A stretch of 64,000 nucleotides of DNA from an uncultured Pseudomonadota bacterium (GCA_963541275.1 CAUTSC010000003.1:29972-93971), one strand, 5' to 3'; counted from the first letter of the stretch, positions 9,839 through 60,931 are shown. Notes: generated by a model from the letters alone, not told the origin. A program made the numbers and translations.

Positions 9839-10314
9839 TTTTCTTTTTTGTTGTTTACTAAATAGCATATAGCCACTTTCGGTGTATGATATAGGTATTA
9901 TTTTGTTTATTCCTACCCAATATCTTATAGTGGAGATTGGTACATTGCATAGTTTTGCAAATTTTGAAATAGTAAGCAGTTCCTTTTTATCCACATCCTC
10001 TTTTTCTATATCAAGTATATTTATTGCAGTTTTAAGTGAACGATTAAGTGCAGATAACATAAATTTTTCATAAGATTGTGTTTTATCATTCATCTTTTTT
10101 TTTCTAGTGCCGATAAATAACGTTTTCTGTCAATAGGGCGTATGATAATGGGGGCAAGTCCGTATGATATTAAATAATGTTCATAAGCAAACGTGCAGTT
10201 CTGCCATTGCCATCAATGAATGGGATGTATCACAACAAAATCATAATGTGCTTCAATTGCTTTTAATTCAGGGGGTTGTTTGCTTTTATTTAATGAGACT
10301 ATAAATTTTTCCAT
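9830..10314 (-). pseudogene. Fic-domain (AMPylase family) pseudogene, N-terminally truncated, with two frameshifts and a C-terminal HTH
   Basis: Minus-strand reading from the ATG at 10314 gives ...HYDFVVIHP. A +1 shift then gives FIDGNGRTARLLMNII and a stop, which completes the Fic motif HPFxDGNGRxxR. Back in the original frame it continues LISYGLAPIIIRPIDRKRYLSALEKKK, running in frame into ORF 9830..10093 (excisionase/MerR-like HTH LLTISKFAKLCNVPISTIRYW). Confidence 0.7.
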
Positions 10315-37308: not shown

Positions 37309-37317
37309 TTTTTTACT

Positions 37318-37346
37318 TGTATAAAAATCTTTTATAATTTATTTTA
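37318..37346 (+). promoter_or_regulatory. family promoter, locus A (TTGTAT -35; weak -10), no structured leader
   Basis: cTTGTATaaaaatct is nearly identical to the -35 region at 59269. The remaining 5' UTR (caggataagagggaga) keeps only the SD-proximal end of the leader seen at the other three loci. Confidence 0.4.
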
Positions 37347-37372
37347 TTTACAGGATAAGAGGGAGAATATTT

Positions 37373-38281
37373 ATGAAATTTTGTATCAAAAATCACAATA
37401 AAATTATATTATTTTTGGTGTTATACTTGTTTCCTGTGAATGCGTTTTCTTCACATGTATCACAAGACAAAAAACAAATGATACAAAGTGTTTTATCCAA
37501 ATATTGTATTCCAAATGATAAAACTTTGTGTAATACACCAGCAGAGGGTAAATACGATCCAAGTTTATCATTTTGTTTATGTAATGATGGTATGACATGG
37601 AATGACACAAACAGAACATGTGATGATTGTAAGGCAGGAACTTACTATAAACAAAATATGAGAGATAATAGCTGTAAATCCTGCTCCCCAGGAAGTTATT
37701 CAGGAACTGGAGCAGCAGGTTGTACTTCATGTTCTCCTGGTTCATATGCTTCAGGTTATGGTAATACAGGTTGTGCTTCTTGCTCACCAGGTACTTATCA
37801 GCCAAGTAGTGGTGGTTCCTCATGTTATAGTTGTAGTAGCAGTAATTGTGAAACCAGTGGTTGGGGAGCGACAAGTTGTTATTCAATATGTGGTGGTTCC
37901 ACTCCATATTGTAATGGTAGTGGCAGTTGTGTAGAGTGTACAAGTAATAGTCATTGTAGCCGTTATTGTGTTAATTGGAGTTGTGTAGAATGTCGGAGTA
38001 GTAGTGATTGTGGTAGTAATTATAGTTGTAGTTCAGGTTCTTGTGTATGTAGTTTAAGTGAAAGTGATTGTCCATGTGGTATGTCAGGCTGTTCGTGTGA
38101 TAGTTGTCCGAGTTCAAACAGTGATGATAGTAGTAGTGATAGTGGTTCTTCAGGTGGTTCATCTGGTAATTCTGGTGGAAGTTCTGGTACTAAAAAACCT
38201 TCTTGTAGTGGTTCTTGTGATGATGGTTTTGGATCATTTACTATGGTAAATGGAAAGTGTGTTTGTGATCATTCAAAATAA
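37373..38281 (+). CDS. secreted Cys-rich repeat protein, type 1 (CxxCxxG(S/T)Y ephrin-receptor/TNFR-like repeats)
   Basis: Sec signal peptide, then repeats CDDCKAGTYY, CKSCSPGSYS, CTSCSPGSYA, CASCSPGTYQ, CYSCSS and CVECTSNSHC, a Ser/Gly-rich linker and a Cys-rich C-terminus. It is a paralog of 49461..50315. Confidence 0.75.
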   Translation: MKFCIKNHNKIILFLVLYLFPVNAFSSHVSQDKKQMIQSVLSKYCIPNDKTLCNTPAEGKYDPSLSFCLCNDGMTWNDTNRTCDDCKAGTYYKQNMRDNSCKSCSPGSYSGTGAAGCTSCSPGSYASGYGNTGCASCSPGTYQPSSGGSSCYSCSSSNCETSGWGATSCYSICGGSTPYCNGSGSCVECTSNSHCSRYCVNWSCVECRSSSDCGSNYSCSSGSCVCSLSESDCPCGMSGCSCDSCPSSNSDDSSSDSGSSGGSSGNSGGSSGTKKPSCSGSCDDGFGSFTMVNGKCVCDHSK

Positions 38282-42520: not shown

Positions 42521-42552
42521 TTTCATAAATAATATAAAAATCATATTTTTTC

Positions 42553-42581
42553 TTGAATAAAACTTTTTAAAATTTTATCAT
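42553..42581 (+). promoter_or_regulatory. family promoter, locus B (TTGAAT-N17-TATCAT)
   Basis: The same architecture and -10 hexamer occur at 49264..49292 and 59269..59297. Confidence 0.55.
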
Positions 42582-42587
42582 ATGACT

Positions 42588-42751
42588 AAACAGGATTTAG
42601 CGATCCTTGTTGTATAAGAGTTAAAAAAAACTCTACAGGTTTTGGAATTCCTACTGTAATGGTAGGAAGGTATGGGAATAGATACAATAATACTATACGC
42701 TATTTTATACAACATAGTCGCTAACTTCCTATCGTAACAGGGAGAGACGAG
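42588..42751 (+). promoter_or_regulatory. conserved structured 5' leader, copy 1 (candidate cis-regulatory RNA)
   Basis: One of three copies of about 165 nt. The long-range helix 42597-42616/42706-42724 shows compensatory changes between copies. The hairpin TTCCTAC-tgtaatg-GTAGGAA (42648-42668) is invariant. CTTCC...GGGAG forms an SD-sequestering hairpin just before the ATG. Confidence 0.6.
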
Positions 42752-43237
42752 ATGAAAAAATCGAAAAACAAGTATGCAATTTTGCTGGGGTTATTGCTTT
42801 GTAAATCCGGTTCTTTTGGTGCAAGCGAGACGACAAAGAAGCTTATACATGAGACGCTTGCAAAATACGGAATAAGTTCCGGTGGTAAGGAAGTTTGCGG
42901 TACGGGACGAGAGCCAGAATATAACAAACAAACAGGAATAGTAAAATGCAAAAACAATGCAGATGGCGACAGTAATAACTGCTGGGATGCAAGTTCCAGA
43001 TTATGTAAAGAATGTCCATCTGGTACAATAGTTAGTTCAAAAGATCACATAACCTGCAGACAAATTGTATGTCCAGATGGATTTGAGCTTAAAGAAATAA
43101 TAAACAACGAATGCCCAGAAGGTTTTGAAATCAAATGGTTTGATGAAACTTGTGATGGAGATACTGATGTCTTTAATGAATCTATGGCAACAAAAAATTA
43201 CACCACTCAATCAACAAATTGTAAAAATGTAAAATAA
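42752..43237 (+). CDS. secreted Cys-rich protein, type 2 (CPxG(F/Y/M)E repeats)
   Basis: Signal peptide and the shared N-terminal motif ETTKKLIHETLAKYGISSGGKEVCG, then CKECPSGT, VCPDGFELK and ECPEGFEIK repeats. It is a paralog of 59470..59988. Confidence 0.75.
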   Translation: MKKSKNKYAILLGLLLCKSGSFGASETTKKLIHETLAKYGISSGGKEVCGTGREPEYNKQTGIVKCKNNADGDSNNCWDASSRLCKECPSGTIVSSKDHITCRQIVCPDGFELKEIINNECPEGFEIKWFDETCDGDTDVFNESMATKNYTTQSTNCKNVK

Positions 43238-43251
43238 AAAAGGAGGAAACT

Positions 43252-44031
43252 ATGAGAAAAAATAAAATAAGTAAATTAGCATTGTTAACAGGCTTGTTAA
43301 TAATAAACACAAACACAAAAGGATTTTATCAATGTGTACCAAAAGAGGATTGGTTGATATATTTCGTTAGAAAGCATCAAGGAACAGAATGGGTTAAAGT
43401 TCTAGATCTTCAAATAAGTTCTCCTTTAGATAAATTTAAAGGATATTTGGAACCTGGAAGATATAGGGTTAAAGCAGCGGGTGCAGGTGGAAAAGAAGAA
43501 AAACGAAGTTTTTATCTTAGACAAAAAGCTGAATTTAAAGCTTGTGTAGGTGCAGGAGGAGGTAATGGGATGAATTATAGTACCTCCAACTGGCCTGGAG
43601 GAGGTGGGGGTGGGGGAGGTAGAGGTTATAGTGGTTATTACTGTGGAGGTACTGGGGGTGGTGGTGGAATTAATACTGGAGGCTGTGCTAGTTGTGGAGG
43701 TAGAGGTTGTAATGGTGGAAATTCTGGAATGAGTGGATTTATCACATTTAGTAGTGTGGGTACTGGTTATGGTGTCGGCTATGGAGGAGAACATGGTGGA
43801 ATCCAAGGTTTATCTCATCGTGGTTATGGTGGTTATGGTTGTTATGGTGGAGGGGGTGGTTCTTCTGGAGATAATAACGGGTTAGGTGGGGGAGGCGGTG
43901 GTGGTGGCGGAAGTTATTTCAAAGTTGGTGATATTGAACTTATTTTAAAAGGTGCTGATGGATCCTATGGCTGGGAAGGTGGTAGTGGTGCAGGCTTTGA
44001 TGGTTATGTAATACTTGAAAAATTGGAGTAA
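43252..44031 (+). CDS. secreted glycine-rich protein (Gly_rich / ALK-LTK GlyR-like candidate)
   Basis: The start is 14 nt after the preceding stop, preceded by an aggagg RBS. It has a signal peptide and the motifs FYQCVPK, GRYRVKAAGAGG and FKACVGAGGG, then multiple poly-G blocks and a C-terminal DGYVILEKLE. It is a paralog of 60008..60931. Confidence 0.75.
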   Translation: MRKNKISKLALLTGLLIINTNTKGFYQCVPKEDWLIYFVRKHQGTEWVKVLDLQISSPLDKFKGYLEPGRYRVKAAGAGGKEEKRSFYLRQKAEFKACVGAGGGNGMNYSTSNWPGGGGGGGGRGYSGYYCGGTGGGGGINTGGCASCGGRGCNGGNSGMSGFITFSSVGTGYGVGYGGEHGGIQGLSHRGYGGYGCYGGGGGSSGDNNGLGGGGGGGGGSYFKVGDIELILKGADGSYGWEGGSGAGFDGYVILEKLE

Positions 44032-49243: not shown

Positions 49244-49263
49244 ACAATCTACATATATTTTGC

Positions 49264-49292
49264 TTGTATAACAGCTTTTTTTATTTTATCAT
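49264..49292 (+). promoter_or_regulatory. family promoter, locus C (TTGTAT-N17-TATCAT)
   Basis: Same hexamers and spacing as the promoters at loci B and D. Confidence 0.55.
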
Positions 49293-49298
49293 AAAACA

Positions 49299-49460
49299 TA
49301 GATAGAAGGGCGTGACAACCCGTATAATACTGGTGTTAAAGCAATGCTGGCACTATTTTCCTACTGTAATGGTAGGAGGGTGTAGGAATATGCAAGAATA
49401 CTGCACGCTATTTTGTATTATATAGTTGTCAACTTCCTATCGTAAAAAGGGAGAGACGAG
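49299..49460 (+). promoter_or_regulatory. conserved structured 5' leader, copy 2
   Basis: Helix halves TGACAAC (49313-49319)/GTTGTCA (49425-49431) and TATAATAC (49323-49330)/GTATTATA (49415-49422), plus the hairpin 49358-49378. Confidence 0.6.
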
Positions 49461-50315
49461 GTGGAGAACTATATAATTATCAAAAAAAATCTAATCAGAA
49501 TGTTGATTTTATCAATGTTGCCAACTGATGTGTTTTCTGCATCACCAGAAACAAAAAGTTTGATACAAAAAACTTTATCAAAATATTGTATTCCAAATGA
49601 TAAAAGTTTATGTAATACACCAGCAGAGGGTAAATACGATCCTAGTTTATCATTTTGTTTATGTAATGATGGTATGATATGGAATGGAACAGACAGAAAA
49701 TGTAATGATTGTAATGCTGGAACTTACTATAAGCAAAATATGAGAGATAATACATGCAAATCCTGCTCCCCAGGAAGTTATTCATGGTCTGGCGCTTCAA
49801 GTTGTACTTCTTGTTCCCCTGGAACTTATCAACCAAGTAGTGGTCAAGGTAGTTGTTTAAATTGTGATACAAGTAGTTGCTATACAAGTGGAGTTGGTGC
49901 AACAAGTTGTTATTATAGATGTGGAGGTGGGAGTCCATATTGTAATGGTAGTGGTAGTTGTGTAGAATGTACAAGTGATAGTCATTGTAGTGGCAATAGA
50001 ACATGCAGTGGTGGTAATTGTGTATGTAATATAAGTTGTTCGTGTGGAACAAATTATAGTGATTGTAGTTGTGAAAGCTGTCCAAGTTCAAGCAGTGATG
50101 ATAGTGGTTCTTCAGGATCATCAGGTAGTTCAGGTTCAGGTGGAGGCAGTGATTATTGCTCTAAACATCCAGAATCTACAGGTTGTTTAATTACTCATTG
50201 TATAGGTACTTTAGGATTTGGATGTGCGAGTCGTAGAAGAGAGTATGATAAAGCAAGAGGAAATAGTAGTAATAAAGACAAAAAAACTAAAAAACAAAAG
50301 AAGAAGAAAAAATAA
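49461..50315 (+). CDS. secreted Cys-rich repeat protein, type 1 paralog (GTG start, Lys-rich tail)
   Basis: The GTG occupies the same position relative to the gggagagacgag RBS as the ATG at the other loci. It has the same N-terminal motif and CxxCxxG(S/T)Y repeats as 37373..38281, and a C-terminal KKTKKQKKKKK. Confidence 0.72.
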   Translation: MENYIIIKKNLIRMLILSMLPTDVFSASPETKSLIQKTLSKYCIPNDKSLCNTPAEGKYDPSLSFCLCNDGMIWNGTDRKCNDCNAGTYYKQNMRDNTCKSCSPGSYSWSGASSCTSCSPGTYQPSSGQGSCLNCDTSSCYTSGVGATSCYYRCGGGSPYCNGSGSCVECTSDSHCSGNRTCSGGNCVCNISCSCGTNYSDCSCESCPSSSSDDSGSSGSSGSSGSGGGSDYCSKHPESTGCLITHCIGTLGFGCASRRREYDKARGNSSNKDKKTKKQKKKKK

Positions 50316-59199: not shown

Positions 59200-59268
59200 A
59201 AATTTTTTGTATTTTTCTTTTCTTTATTAAATTTTGAAAATTGATTTCACATACATGGATATTTTTCC

Positions 59269-59297
59269 TTGTATAAAAATCTATTTAGTATTATCAT
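59269..59297 (+). promoter_or_regulatory. family promoter, locus D (TTGTAT-N17-TATCAT)
   Basis: Same hexamers and spacing as the promoters at loci B and C. Confidence 0.55.
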
Positions 59298-59303
59298 GAA
59301 AGT

Positions 59304-59469
59304 AAATGAAAGGGTGTAGCAACCCTATTGTGTATTGATGTTAAAATGACCTAGTAAGGGTTAGGGATTCCTACTGTAATGGTAGGAAGGTGTAGGAATA
59401 TAGAAGAATACTATACACTATTTTACACAATATAGTTGCTAACTTCCTATCGTAACAGGGAGAGATGAG
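59304..59469 (+). promoter_or_regulatory. conserved structured 5' leader, copy 3
   Basis: Helix halves TAGCAAC (59317-59323)/GTTGCTA (59435-59441) and TATTGTGTA (59326-59334)/TACACAATA (59424-59432). The hairpin is at 59368-59388. CTTCC (59443-59447) can pair with the SD GGGAG (59458-59462). Confidence 0.6.
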
Positions 59470-59988
59470 ATGAAAAACTATATAAAAAATCATGGCAAAA
59501 TTTTGCTGTTTGCTAGTGTTTGTTTATTTTCGCACAAAGCATTTTCTGCATCGCCAGAAACTTTAGAGTTAATTCACAAAACTCTTGCAAAATATGGAAT
59601 AAGTGCTGGAGGTAAGGAAGTTTGCGGAAAAGATACTGAACCAATTTGTAATGAACCAGGATGTAAAGTGAAATGCAACAGGTATGGTGCAAACAACTAT
59701 TGGTCGCCAAGTGATAGGTTATGTAAAAGCTGTCCAGTTGGAACAATACTCAACAAAACAACATTTCAAAGTTGCAATCAAGTTGTGTGTCCGGATGGTA
59801 CAACTGGGATAAAAGTAAGTGGTGGAAATTGTCCCGCAGGAATGGATTTATTCGCCCCAAGTAAAGGAATCTGCCCAGAGGGATACGAGTTAAAGAAAAT
59901 CACAAATGGAAAATGCCCGGATGGAATGGAGTTGATAGATTTAAGAAATAGCTGTCCAGCTGGATACGAAATGTTTAAACAATCATAA
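59470..59988 (+). CDS. secreted Cys-rich protein, type 2 paralog
   Basis: Signal peptide and the motif ETLELIHKTLAKYGISAGGKEVCG, then the repeats CPVGT, VCPDGTTG, NCPAGMDL, ICPEGYELK, KCPDGMELI and SCPAGYEMF. Confidence 0.75.
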   Translation: MKNYIKNHGKILLFASVCLFSHKAFSASPETLELIHKTLAKYGISAGGKEVCGKDTEPICNEPGCKVKCNRYGANNYWSPSDRLCKSCPVGTILNKTTFQSCNQVVCPDGTTGIKVSGGNCPAGMDLFAPSKGICPEGYELKKITNGKCPDGMELIDLRNSCPAGYEMFKQS

Positions 59989-60007: not shown

Positions 60008-60931
60008 ATGATAAAAAAACAAATAAGTAAAATAAGTATGCTTGCAAGCTTGCTTGTGGCGAGCACAATCAACGCTCAAGAATTTTATACCTGCGTGCCA
60101 AAGAAAAGTTGGTGGAAAGATGTTATGACAGAAAGTGTTGAAAAAGGTATAAGAAAAGGAAATTTAAAAGGTGTATGGAAAAAGATTATACACCTTACAC
60201 CTACTTCTCCACTAAAAGATTTTCAACAACCATTATATATAGGCAAATATAGATTAACAGCCGCTGCAGCAGGAGGAAGTGAGGAAATAAGGTATTTTAA
60301 TCTTGATAAAGAAACAGAATTTAAAGCCTGTGTTGGAGCAGGTGGGGGAGGAGGTGGTGGTGGCAACAGATTCAGTGGCTACTGCGGCGGCGGCGGAGGC
60401 GGCGGTGGTGGACGGGGTTATGGAGGATACTACAGTGGAGGAAACGGCGGTAGCAGTAGCGGCGGTAGCGGAGGTTATGGTATAGGTGGTGAAGGTGGAA
60501 GCGGCGGCTTCTCCTACGCTCACGAAGTAAAAAGTGGCAGGACCGGTAAAGGAGGCAAAGGTGGCGGTAGTGGTGGCAATGGCAGTGATAGCAGCGAATC
60601 TGGTGGCCACAACCTCAGCATCGGGAACGAATATGGTAGTAGTGGCAAAGGCTATGGTAAAGGCGTAGGTGGCAAAGGCGGCAACATGAAAAACGACATC
60701 AACATGGGTGGTGGTGGTGGTGGAAGCGGCTGTGGCGGCGGTGGAGGTGGAGGAAGCTTCAACCACTCTGGATACGGAGGCGCTGGCGGCGGCGGTGGTG
60801 GAAGTTATTTTCAAGTTGCAGATGTTGAATTGGTGTTAAAAGGTGGGGATGGAAAACCTGCTGATGGATATAATGGTGGTGGGGATGGTGCTGGTCCTGA
60901 TGGATATGTAATAGTTGAAAAAATGGAATAA
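60008..60931 (+). CDS. secreted glycine-rich protein paralog (Gly_rich / GlyR-like candidate)
   Basis: Signal peptide and the motifs FYTCVPK, GKYRLTAAAAGG and FKACVGAGGGGGGGG, then extensive poly-G/S blocks and a C-terminal DGYVIVEKME. It is locally GC-rich because of GGC/GGT codons. Confidence 0.75.
   Translation: MIKKQISKISMLASLLVASTINAQEFYTCVPKKSWWKDVMTESVEKGIRKGNLKGVWKKIIHLTPTSPLKDFQQPLYIGKYRLTAAAAGGSEEIRYFNLDKETEFKACVGAGGGGGGGGNRFSGYCGGGGGGGGGRGYGGYYSGGNGGSSSGGSGGYGIGGEGGSGGFSYAHEVKSGRTGKGGKGGGSGGNGSDSSESGGHNLSIGNEYGSSGKGYGKGVGGKGGNMKNDINMGGGGGGSGCGGGGGGGSFNHSGYGGAGGGGGGSYFQVADVELVLKGGDGKPADGYNGGGDGAGPDGYVIVEKME

Follow-up and report, generated by a model that had tools for sequence, protein, structure and literature searches.

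The 64,000-nucleotide stretch of DNA analysed here (the window) is a segment of a bacterial chromosome that carries rpoB- and rpoC-sized open reading frames, ssb, engB, a DUF2155 gene and tRNAs. The best named relatives of the window's EngB come from entries labelled Alphaproteobacteria bacterium (63-65% identity) and Rickettsiales bacterium (59%), and we therefore infer that the host is an uncultured, AT-rich alphaproteobacterium. A leader recurs three times on the plus strand of this segment, at 42588-42751 (copy 1), 49298-49460 (copy 2) and 59304-59469 (copy 3), each of which runs up to the start codon of a gene that encodes a Cys-rich protein with a signal peptide. Before every copy stands a promoter-like site of the form TTG(A/T)AT-17 nt-TATCAT (42553-42581, 49264-49292 and 59269-59297), the first of which was also called by a promoter scan; copy 1 additionally lies downstream of the terminator of the ssb gene. 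From promoter to start codon, copy 1 occupies 42553-42754, with the gene starting at 42752, and copy 2 occupies 49264-49463, with a GTG start at 49461. For copy 3, the putative sigma-70-like promoter read from the sequence (TTGTAT, 17 nt, TATCAT) would place the start of transcription near 59304, and the translation initiation region (59457-59472) consists of a Shine-Dalgarno (SD) element, AGGGAG, at 59457-59462, a spacer of 7 nt and an ATG at 59470.

The Cys-rich gene of copy 3 (59470-59988) is followed by a gene for a secreted Gly-rich protein (60008-60931), and a second such gene (43252-44031) follows the Cys-rich gene of copy 1; the Gly-rich genes probably share operons with their Cys-rich neighbors. 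Their products contain runs of 8-10 glycines and have conserved motifs at both termini, CVGAGGG and DGYVI(L/V)EK among them, and searches of Pfam and NCBIfam returned no match for them. The product of the copy 2 gene (49461-50315) is longer, at 284 aa; it combines a Cys-rich repeat of the Ephrin_rec_like type (Pfam E = 2e-7) with a stretch rich in Ser and Gly and a tail rich in Lys, and has only its N-terminal region in common with the proteins of copies 1 and 3. A fourth Cys-rich paralogue (37310-38281; 302 aa) is close to the copy 2 protein and has a similar promoter block (ACTTGTATAAAAATC) and SD (AGAGGGAGAA); its leader is only ~35 nt long and lacks the structured element described below, making it a natural leader-less control within the same genome.

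A BLAST search of the copy 3 region against the window returned the two further copies (matches at 42543-42759 and 49253-49471), the aligned copies are 78-84% identical (mean column identity 83%), and a covariance model found exactly three matches in the window, scoring copy 1 at 167.7 bits and copy 2 at 154.9 bits. These results bear out an earlier interpretation made from the DNA alone (the sequence-only reading), which had described a leader present in three copies and marked by repeated hexamers. Inspection of copy 3 places these boxes where that reading had put them, with TTCCTA at 59368-59373 and 59444-59449 and TAGGAA at 59383-59388 and 59393-59398, and likewise confirms the CTTCC (59443-59447) that contains part of the 3' box and the GGGAG (59458-59462) of the SD. 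The boxes had been said to be kept in all three copies apart from a TGGGAA in copy 1; that exception is real, and a further one has to be added, as the first such box of copy 2 reads TAGGAG (49373). With a G+C content of 31.5%, the window contains 15 TTCCTA and 19 TAGGAA hexamers, or about 0.04-0.05 of each expected per 166 nt, yet six of the 15 and four of the 19 fall inside the three leaders. Because hexamers so rare in the window are clustered in this way, the box pattern is not due to chance.

To establish how widely the leader is distributed, we surveyed homologues of the downstream genes in ENA and Logan contigs, a coverage that makes the resulting distribution a lower bound. The Cys-rich protein has 33 homologues, and metagenome contigs supplied five further distinct leaders (L001, L003, L006, L007 and L020). 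Two of these, L001 and L003, precede Cys-rich genes, and another two, L006 and L007, are far more distant and were obtained by scanning JGI metagenomes with a degenerate leader pattern. L006 and L007, together with L020 as a third leader of this kinase type, precede a gene for an APH/choline-kinase-like protein of 236-242 aa that lies between priA and miaA, homologues of which are named as Alphaproteobacteria bacterium or Rickettsiales bacterium MAGs. The leaders of two more loci (L008 and L009) are identical to that of L006, and promoter-like sites equivalent to those of the window precede L001, L003, L007 and L020. The covariance model, trained on four leaders, gave one match per positive locus and no extra copy in the 64 kb of the window or in ~260 kb of related loci. 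The GTDB representative collection yielded no relative of the Cys-rich protein (by protein pattern) or of the leader (by leader pattern), and such relatives seem to be absent from that collection or masked in it. BLAST searches of the leaders against phage and plasmid collections returned nothing, nor did a scan of viral contigs with the leader pattern.

Some relatives of the regulated genes lack the element. L005, whose protein is 47% identical, has a leader of ~75 nt (within 100-215) in which a box-like AGCUUUCUAUCAC and the same SD, AGGGAGAGA, are all that is left, and the more distant kinase orthologues of the P0106 type (L010-L019) have a 72-bp spacer, at about 9928-10001, between priA and the kinase gene without the leader. 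Since leader-less relatives of both kinds exist, including the paralogue at 37373 in the window, the leader is a separable regulatory module that has been gained or lost as a unit.

Comparison of the eight distinct leaders reveals a core of ~145 nt that folds as a four-way junction built from helices P1a, P1b, P2, P3 and P4 (State I). In a hand-curated structural alignment of the eight, which was built to fit the helices, N-padded to survive MAFFT and leaves P2 out of both the alignment and the pair counts, 95.8% of the cells are paired and 15 of the 30 pairs have changed on both sides; as the eight sequences represent about three lineages, many of these doubly changed cells correspond to few evolutionary events. 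The covariation score of State I is 0.543, as against 0.267 +/- 0.026 for shuffled alignments (none of 500 shuffles scored as high), and sliding the pairing partners by one to three columns lowers the paired fraction to 27-61%. Minimum-free-energy (MFE) folding of single sequences recovers the junction in six of the eight leaders, and RNAalifold returns it both for the three window copies and for all eight leaders. The MFE of copy 3 is -45.7 kcal/mol, compared with -34.0 +/- 3.9 kcal/mol for shuffled sequences (z-score -2.98).

The junction is closed by P1, in which P1a (59317-59323 with 59435-59441; all cells paired, five of seven pairs compensatory) and P1b (59326-59335 with 59423-59432; eight of ten pairs compensatory) are separated by an internal loop that has CC between the 5' strands and UA between the 3' strands of the 59423-59441 arm. 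Most of the covariation signal comes from these two helices, which are also predicted by MFE folding and RNAalifold; the long-range helix of the sequence-only reading (59317-59335 with 59423-59441) is thus real and forms the best-supported element of the leader. P2 and the A-rich junction strands occupy 59336-59367, where a hairpin of variable sequence and length is predicted in every leader. P3 (59368-59388) joins the first TTCCTA box to the first TAGGAA box through 7 bp between UUCCUAC (59368-59374) and GUAGGAA (59382-59388), capped by a UGUAAUG loop; 98% of its cells are paired, and its outermost U-A pair is replaced by C-G in the distant leaders. P4 (59390-59416) comprises 6 bp between GUGUAG (59390-59395) and CUAUAC (59411-59416), which follow GURURG/CYRYAC across the leaders and are paired in every cell, with one compensatory pair and two that exchange among G.U, A-U and G-C; besides the GUGUAG/CUAUAC of copy 3, the leaders show GUAUGG/CUAUAC, GUGUAG/CUGCAC, GUGUGG/CUACAC and GUGUGG/CCGCAC. 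The second TAGGAA box is consequently half stem and half loop of this helix.

Within P4, a symmetric internal loop, GAAUA/GAAUA in copy 3 and RAAUA...RAAUA in general, is kept in all eight leaders. This loop (59396-59410) can be drawn as the succession R.A, A-U, A.A, U-A and A.R, with the outer purine-purine positions exchanging G and A across leaders, a pattern that suggests a structured non-canonical motif. The junction strand ACUAUU(U) and the 3' strands of P1b and P1a together span 59417-59441 and include CTATT and ATAG sequences that are invariant in all eight leaders. The unpaired nucleotides that scarcely change are those of the P4 RAAUA loop and the (A/G)CUAUU(U) strand, together with the AUAG at the internal loop of P1 and the lone G that separates P3 from P4; such conservation would fit tertiary contacts or a binding pocket.

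A second fold, State II, is mutually exclusive with State I and is also conserved. One of its two parts is a small hairpin, P0 (59311-59315 with 59322-59326, or 59311-59325 without the last U), formed in copy 3 by AGGGU and ACCC(U) and present in all eight leaders, with 92% of its cells paired, three of its five pairs compensatory and a consensus of RGGRU/AYCCY that is realized as AGGGU/ACCCU, AGGAU/AUCCU or GAGGU/GCCUC. We assign P0 to State II because its 3' strand shares two bases with the end of the 5' strand of P1a. The other part is an alternative, anti-sequestor helix in which 59378-59389, running from the 3' end of the P3 loop through the P3 3' strand to the junction G, pairs with 59443-59453. 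The 3' partner lies in the 3' box CUUCCUAU and its CGUA tail (59443-59454), a segment that supplies the anti-SD strand in one fold and in the other completes the alternative helix as its 3' strand. This helix has 9-11 bp in eight of eight leaders (in the window, AUGGUAGGAAG with CUUCCUAUCGU; in the kinase type, UGGUAGGAGG with CCUCCUACCA), and its eight core pairs are paired throughout, with the sole variable core column (alignment positions 97/157) changing from A-U to G-C in compensatory fashion. The 5' strand of P3, the 3' strand of P3 and the 3' box accordingly co-change, from U/A/U to C/G/C. Constrained folding places State II 2.4-5.5 kcal/mol above the MFE. The 3' box begins 1 nt past the outer end of P1 and should be unable to reach the junction while P1 is intact, so that State II would have to open P1, a requirement that would also explain why a replacement hairpin, P0, is conserved at the 5' end. 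Kinase-type leaders have an extra 5' hairpin upstream of P0 (L006, 672-693; L007, 4214-4234; L020, 9905-9921), of the form GAUACAAG-GUAUU-CUUGUAUU for example, which differs in compensatory fashion between loci and is absent from the window copies.

Two kinds of expression platform follow the same core. Every one of the five leaders of the Cys-rich type has a 3' box complementary to its SD. The pairing is CUUCCU/AGGGAG in copies 1-3 and CUUCCU/GGGGAG in L003; for L001, which has a different spacer that is longer by 25 nt and contains a small hairpin of its own, it is AACUUCC/GGAGGUU. The CUUCC:GGGAG pairing put forward for copy 3 is thus possible, as 5 bp including one G.U or as 6 bp when extended to CUUCCU/AGGGAG. 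In L006, L007 and L020, an intrinsic terminator takes the place of the SD hairpin. In these three leaders, the box stands directly before ACCACCAA-loop-UUGGUGGU and a U-tract, and a terminator scan called the terminator in L007 and L020 (ACCACCAA-loop-TTGGTGGT followed by TTCTTGTTTT); that of L006 is visible by eye. Part of the terminator stem is shared with CCUCCUACCACC, the box homologue of the kinase type, and the alternative helix (UGGUAGGAGG with CCUCCUACCA) takes up the ACCA of that stem. L006, L007 and L020 therefore show the three hallmarks of an intrinsic-terminator attenuator, namely a G+C-rich hairpin, a U-tract and an overlapping alternative helix. That one core is joined to terminators in three leaders is as expected for a regulatory switch.

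In the public annotation of L020, the kinase (P0036; 10001-10855, 284 aa) is started from a GTG that lies within the leader, directly downstream of the SD-like GGUAGGAGGGU of P3. This start is probably a gene-calling artefact and the ATG at 10116 the genuine one; gene finders seem to be misled by the SD-like strand of P3. A leader peptide initiated from this strand was considered and rejected, as the frames that follow it are not conserved: copy 3 runs into an immediate stop, and the frames of L007 and L020 differ.

Equilibrium nearest-neighbour folding gives a more complicated picture of the SD hairpin in the window. At 37 °C, this hairpin forms with probabilities of 0.27, 0.00 and 0.03 in copies 1-3, and the SD of copy 3 is ~90% unpaired. 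The hairpin is disfavoured because the free 5' AGGG pairs with the UCCU of the box and thereby extends P1, and when the 5' tail is made unavailable, its probability rises to 0.97 in copies 1 and 3. The P1 extension (5' AGGG with the 3' box) is preferred by MFE folding, yet it shows no covariation and performs no better than slid controls. If it does form, which we regard as unproven, regulation in the window could have the opposite sign, such that State I would be ON there while still OFF in the kinase type.

Taken together, these features outline how the leader might operate. In State I, P1a and P1b would enclose P2, P3 and P4, and the 3' box CUUCCUAU would not be needed by the junction. The box could then pair with the SD AGGGAG in the window copies and block translation, and in the kinase type the adjacent intrinsic terminator would be free to form, so that either output would be OFF. 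In State II, P1 and P3 would open, the 5' end would fold into P0 and the 3' strand of P3 would form 9-11 bp with the 3' box and its tail, either freeing the SD or removing the first bases of the terminator stem, and expression would be ON. A putative effector would most likely stabilize the State I junction, and its most probable kind would be a small molecule or ion that engages the GAAUA/GAAUA loop, the ACUAUUU strand and the UA. The helices, their covariation, the two kinds of platform and the mutual exclusivity of the folds are observed; the direction of the switch, its response to an effector and the site of transcription start are deduced from them. On this basis, we place the odds that the leader is a genuine two-state cis-regulatory switch slightly above even, and more tentatively we propose a small molecule or ion as its effector.

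Several other explanations bear on this proposal. The sequence-only reading gave CTTCC two possible partners, the SD and the second TAGGAA box, the latter as a pseudoknot across the long-range helix, with a response to temperature or a ligand. Its central idea of mutually exclusive pairings at the ribosome-binding site survives, in that the leader is a structured RNA whose competing pairings converge on the 3' CTTCCTA box; the alternative partner of that box, however, is the first TAGGAA box and not the second. The box:SD hairpin can indeed form, and in the window copies the second box could make 7 bp with the 3' box, wobbles counted, with 92.9% of cells paired across all leaders. The second box nevertheless lies half buried in the covarying P4, and at the one column of the 3' box that has changed (U to C), it is left with an uncompensated A.C in three of eight leaders, a change for which the first box does compensate. 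A shuffle control matched or exceeded the second-box pairing in 172 of 500 trials, which is not significant. The pseudoknot is likewise not required, as the alternative fold opens P1 and forms the covarying P0; geometry also speaks against it, as the 3' box sits 1 nt from the outer end of a P1 of ~17 bp and the junction should be out of reach while that helix is intact. We consider this version very improbable. An RNA thermometer, in which a weak box:SD hairpin melts with heat and frees the ribosome-binding site, fares still worse. Known thermometers do use short SD hairpins with G.U pairs, and the SD hairpin here is short and has a G.U pair. The predicted probability that the SD is unpaired nonetheless shows no rise between 20 and 45 °C (0.69 to 0.47 in copy 1, 0.61 to 0.62 in copy 2 and 0.85 to 0.90 in copy 3, where the site is mostly open throughout). 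A thermometer would also have no need of a conserved, covarying four-way junction of ~145 nt, three of the relatives use an intrinsic terminator, and ROSE, fourU and the other thermometer models of Rfam gave no match. The flat temperature profile and the terminator-type members together argue against a temperature sensor, and we regard one as highly improbable.

A two-state leader could instead be governed by an RNA-binding protein, or by a translating or standby 30S subunit, acting through SD-like, anti-SD-like or GGA elements. Three SD-like purine boxes (AGGGU, GUAGGAAGG and GUAGGAAU) and three anti-SD-like boxes in the RNA would accommodate such an effector, as would the lack of a common metabolic theme among the regulated genes. 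The GGA motifs, however, are in stems and not in hairpin loops, none of the loci has a candidate protein gene linked to its leader, and invariant unpaired nucleotides set in a junction architecture would be more typical of a ligand aptamer; we judge a protein or ribosomal effector unlikely, while granting it some weight. It is less probable again that the leader is a constitutive structured element, serving mRNA stability or processing without switching, whose similarity in the window reflects recent gene duplication. The window copies, at 78-84% identity, were duplicated together with their genes and State I dominates at equilibrium, but compensatory changes occur in both of two mutually exclusive folds, the core is kept across different genes and platforms, and a terminator inside the leader would be pointless if expression were constitutive. 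Finally, dispersed palindromic repeats are known from Rickettsia, and a leader with long inverted complementarity that recurs in one AT-rich alphaproteobacterial genome might be a mobile or palindromic repeat lying upstream of genes by chance. We give this idea almost no credence, as orientation and register between the promoter and the start codon of related genes are always the same, the covariance model finds no other copy in the 64 kb or in the ~260 kb of related loci, and the viral contigs and plasmids searched contain none.

We therefore return to the two-state switch, and our preferred interpretation is that of a new orphan leader of riboswitch-like character, narrowly distributed among uncultured Alphaproteobacteria. 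In its most specific form, this reading proposes a new riboswitch class restricted to uncultured, AT-rich, Rickettsiales-like Alphaproteobacteria, in which a four-way-junction aptamer would sense a metabolite or ion, repress three paralogous Cys-/Gly-rich operons at the level of translation in one lineage and a small APH-like kinase by termination in another, and use P3 as an SD/anti-SD mimic within an unusual three-strand design; we assign this full proposal a probability of roughly 0.35. The regulated genes, for secreted Cys-rich proteins, Gly-rich proteins and a small kinase, have no evident common metabolic theme that would point to a ligand, and when their products were searched against Pfam, NCBIfam and PDB, 'APH/choline-kinase-like' and 'Ephrin_rec_like' were the only functional hints obtained. 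If the reading is correct, the leader would add an orphan riboswitch-like class from poorly studied, uncultured Alphaproteobacteria, and three dispersed operons for secreted Cys-/Gly-rich proteins, which are plausible surface or host-interaction factors, would be co-regulated by one RNA sensor. The identity of the effector would in turn reveal a signal that these organisms monitor, and the combination of one core with two platforms and leader-less paralogues provides natural controls that make the element directly testable.

At the gathering thresholds of Rfam 15, the window matched nothing but three tRNAs. With the E-value limit relaxed to 10, the region 59250-59500 gave only two chance matches, which scored 18.3 and 17.4 bits where the gathering scores are 70 and 44, and nothing was found over the leaders of L001, L003, L006 and L007 at E up to 1; the leader thus belongs to no Rfam 15 family. 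An exact search for the leader sequence in open full texts returned no match. The first 200 of the 408 supplementary files that accompany a large catalogue of human-microbiome structured RNAs (Fremin and Bhatt, 2021; PMC8040213) likewise contained no matching sequence. The leader may nevertheless have been listed before in a bulk catalogue.

Set against known regulatory RNAs, the leader shares some features with several groups. As in the ROSE and fourU thermometers, the SD can be engaged by a pyrimidine-rich strand, giving a short and imperfect hairpin; unlike them, the leader is far larger, has a covarying junction and terminator-type members and shows no predicted temperature dependence, and the behaviour that defines such elements, a marginal SD hairpin that opens with heat, is not seen in the folding model. 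L006, L007 and L020 resemble the T-box, PyrR and RAT/LicT attenuators, in that an antiterminator overlaps the 5' stem of the terminator and competes with an upstream hairpin, but they lack a T-box sequence, a specifier loop, a PyrR-binding loop and a RAT consensus (no Rfam match), and their lineage is alphaproteobacterial and not Firmicutes. Targets of CsrA/RsmA present GGA in hairpin loops, one of them over the SD; here the GGA motifs sit in helix strands (P0, the 3' strand of P3 and the 5' strand of P4) in both supported folds.

The closest parallels are with riboswitches, two of whose general attributes are present, namely a conserved and covarying 5' UTR domain and, by computation, mutually exclusive pairings that control an SD or terminator. 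Like the TPP and SAM-I classes, the leader combines a covarying, multi-helix core in a 5' UTR with strand competition and an output at the SD or a terminator; unlike them, it has no Rfam match, is represented by eight distinct sequences, all from Alphaproteobacteria-like uncultured contigs, and is followed by genes that give no metabolic clue. The SAM-I, yybP-ykoY Mn2+ and NiCo czcD aptamers are four-way junctions closed by a switching P1. The leader's own signatures (GGUAGGARGGURURGRAAUA, AAUACYRYACRCUAUUU and AUAG) differ from those of these three classes, for which cmscan gave no match, and to our knowledge, a symmetric GAAUA/GAAUA loop in P4 and a competing 5' hairpin such as P0 are not features of any of them. 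In overall architecture, the leader nonetheless follows the same plan as SAM-I, yybP-ykoY and czcD, with four helices arranged around one junction that is closed by a P1 predicted to switch.
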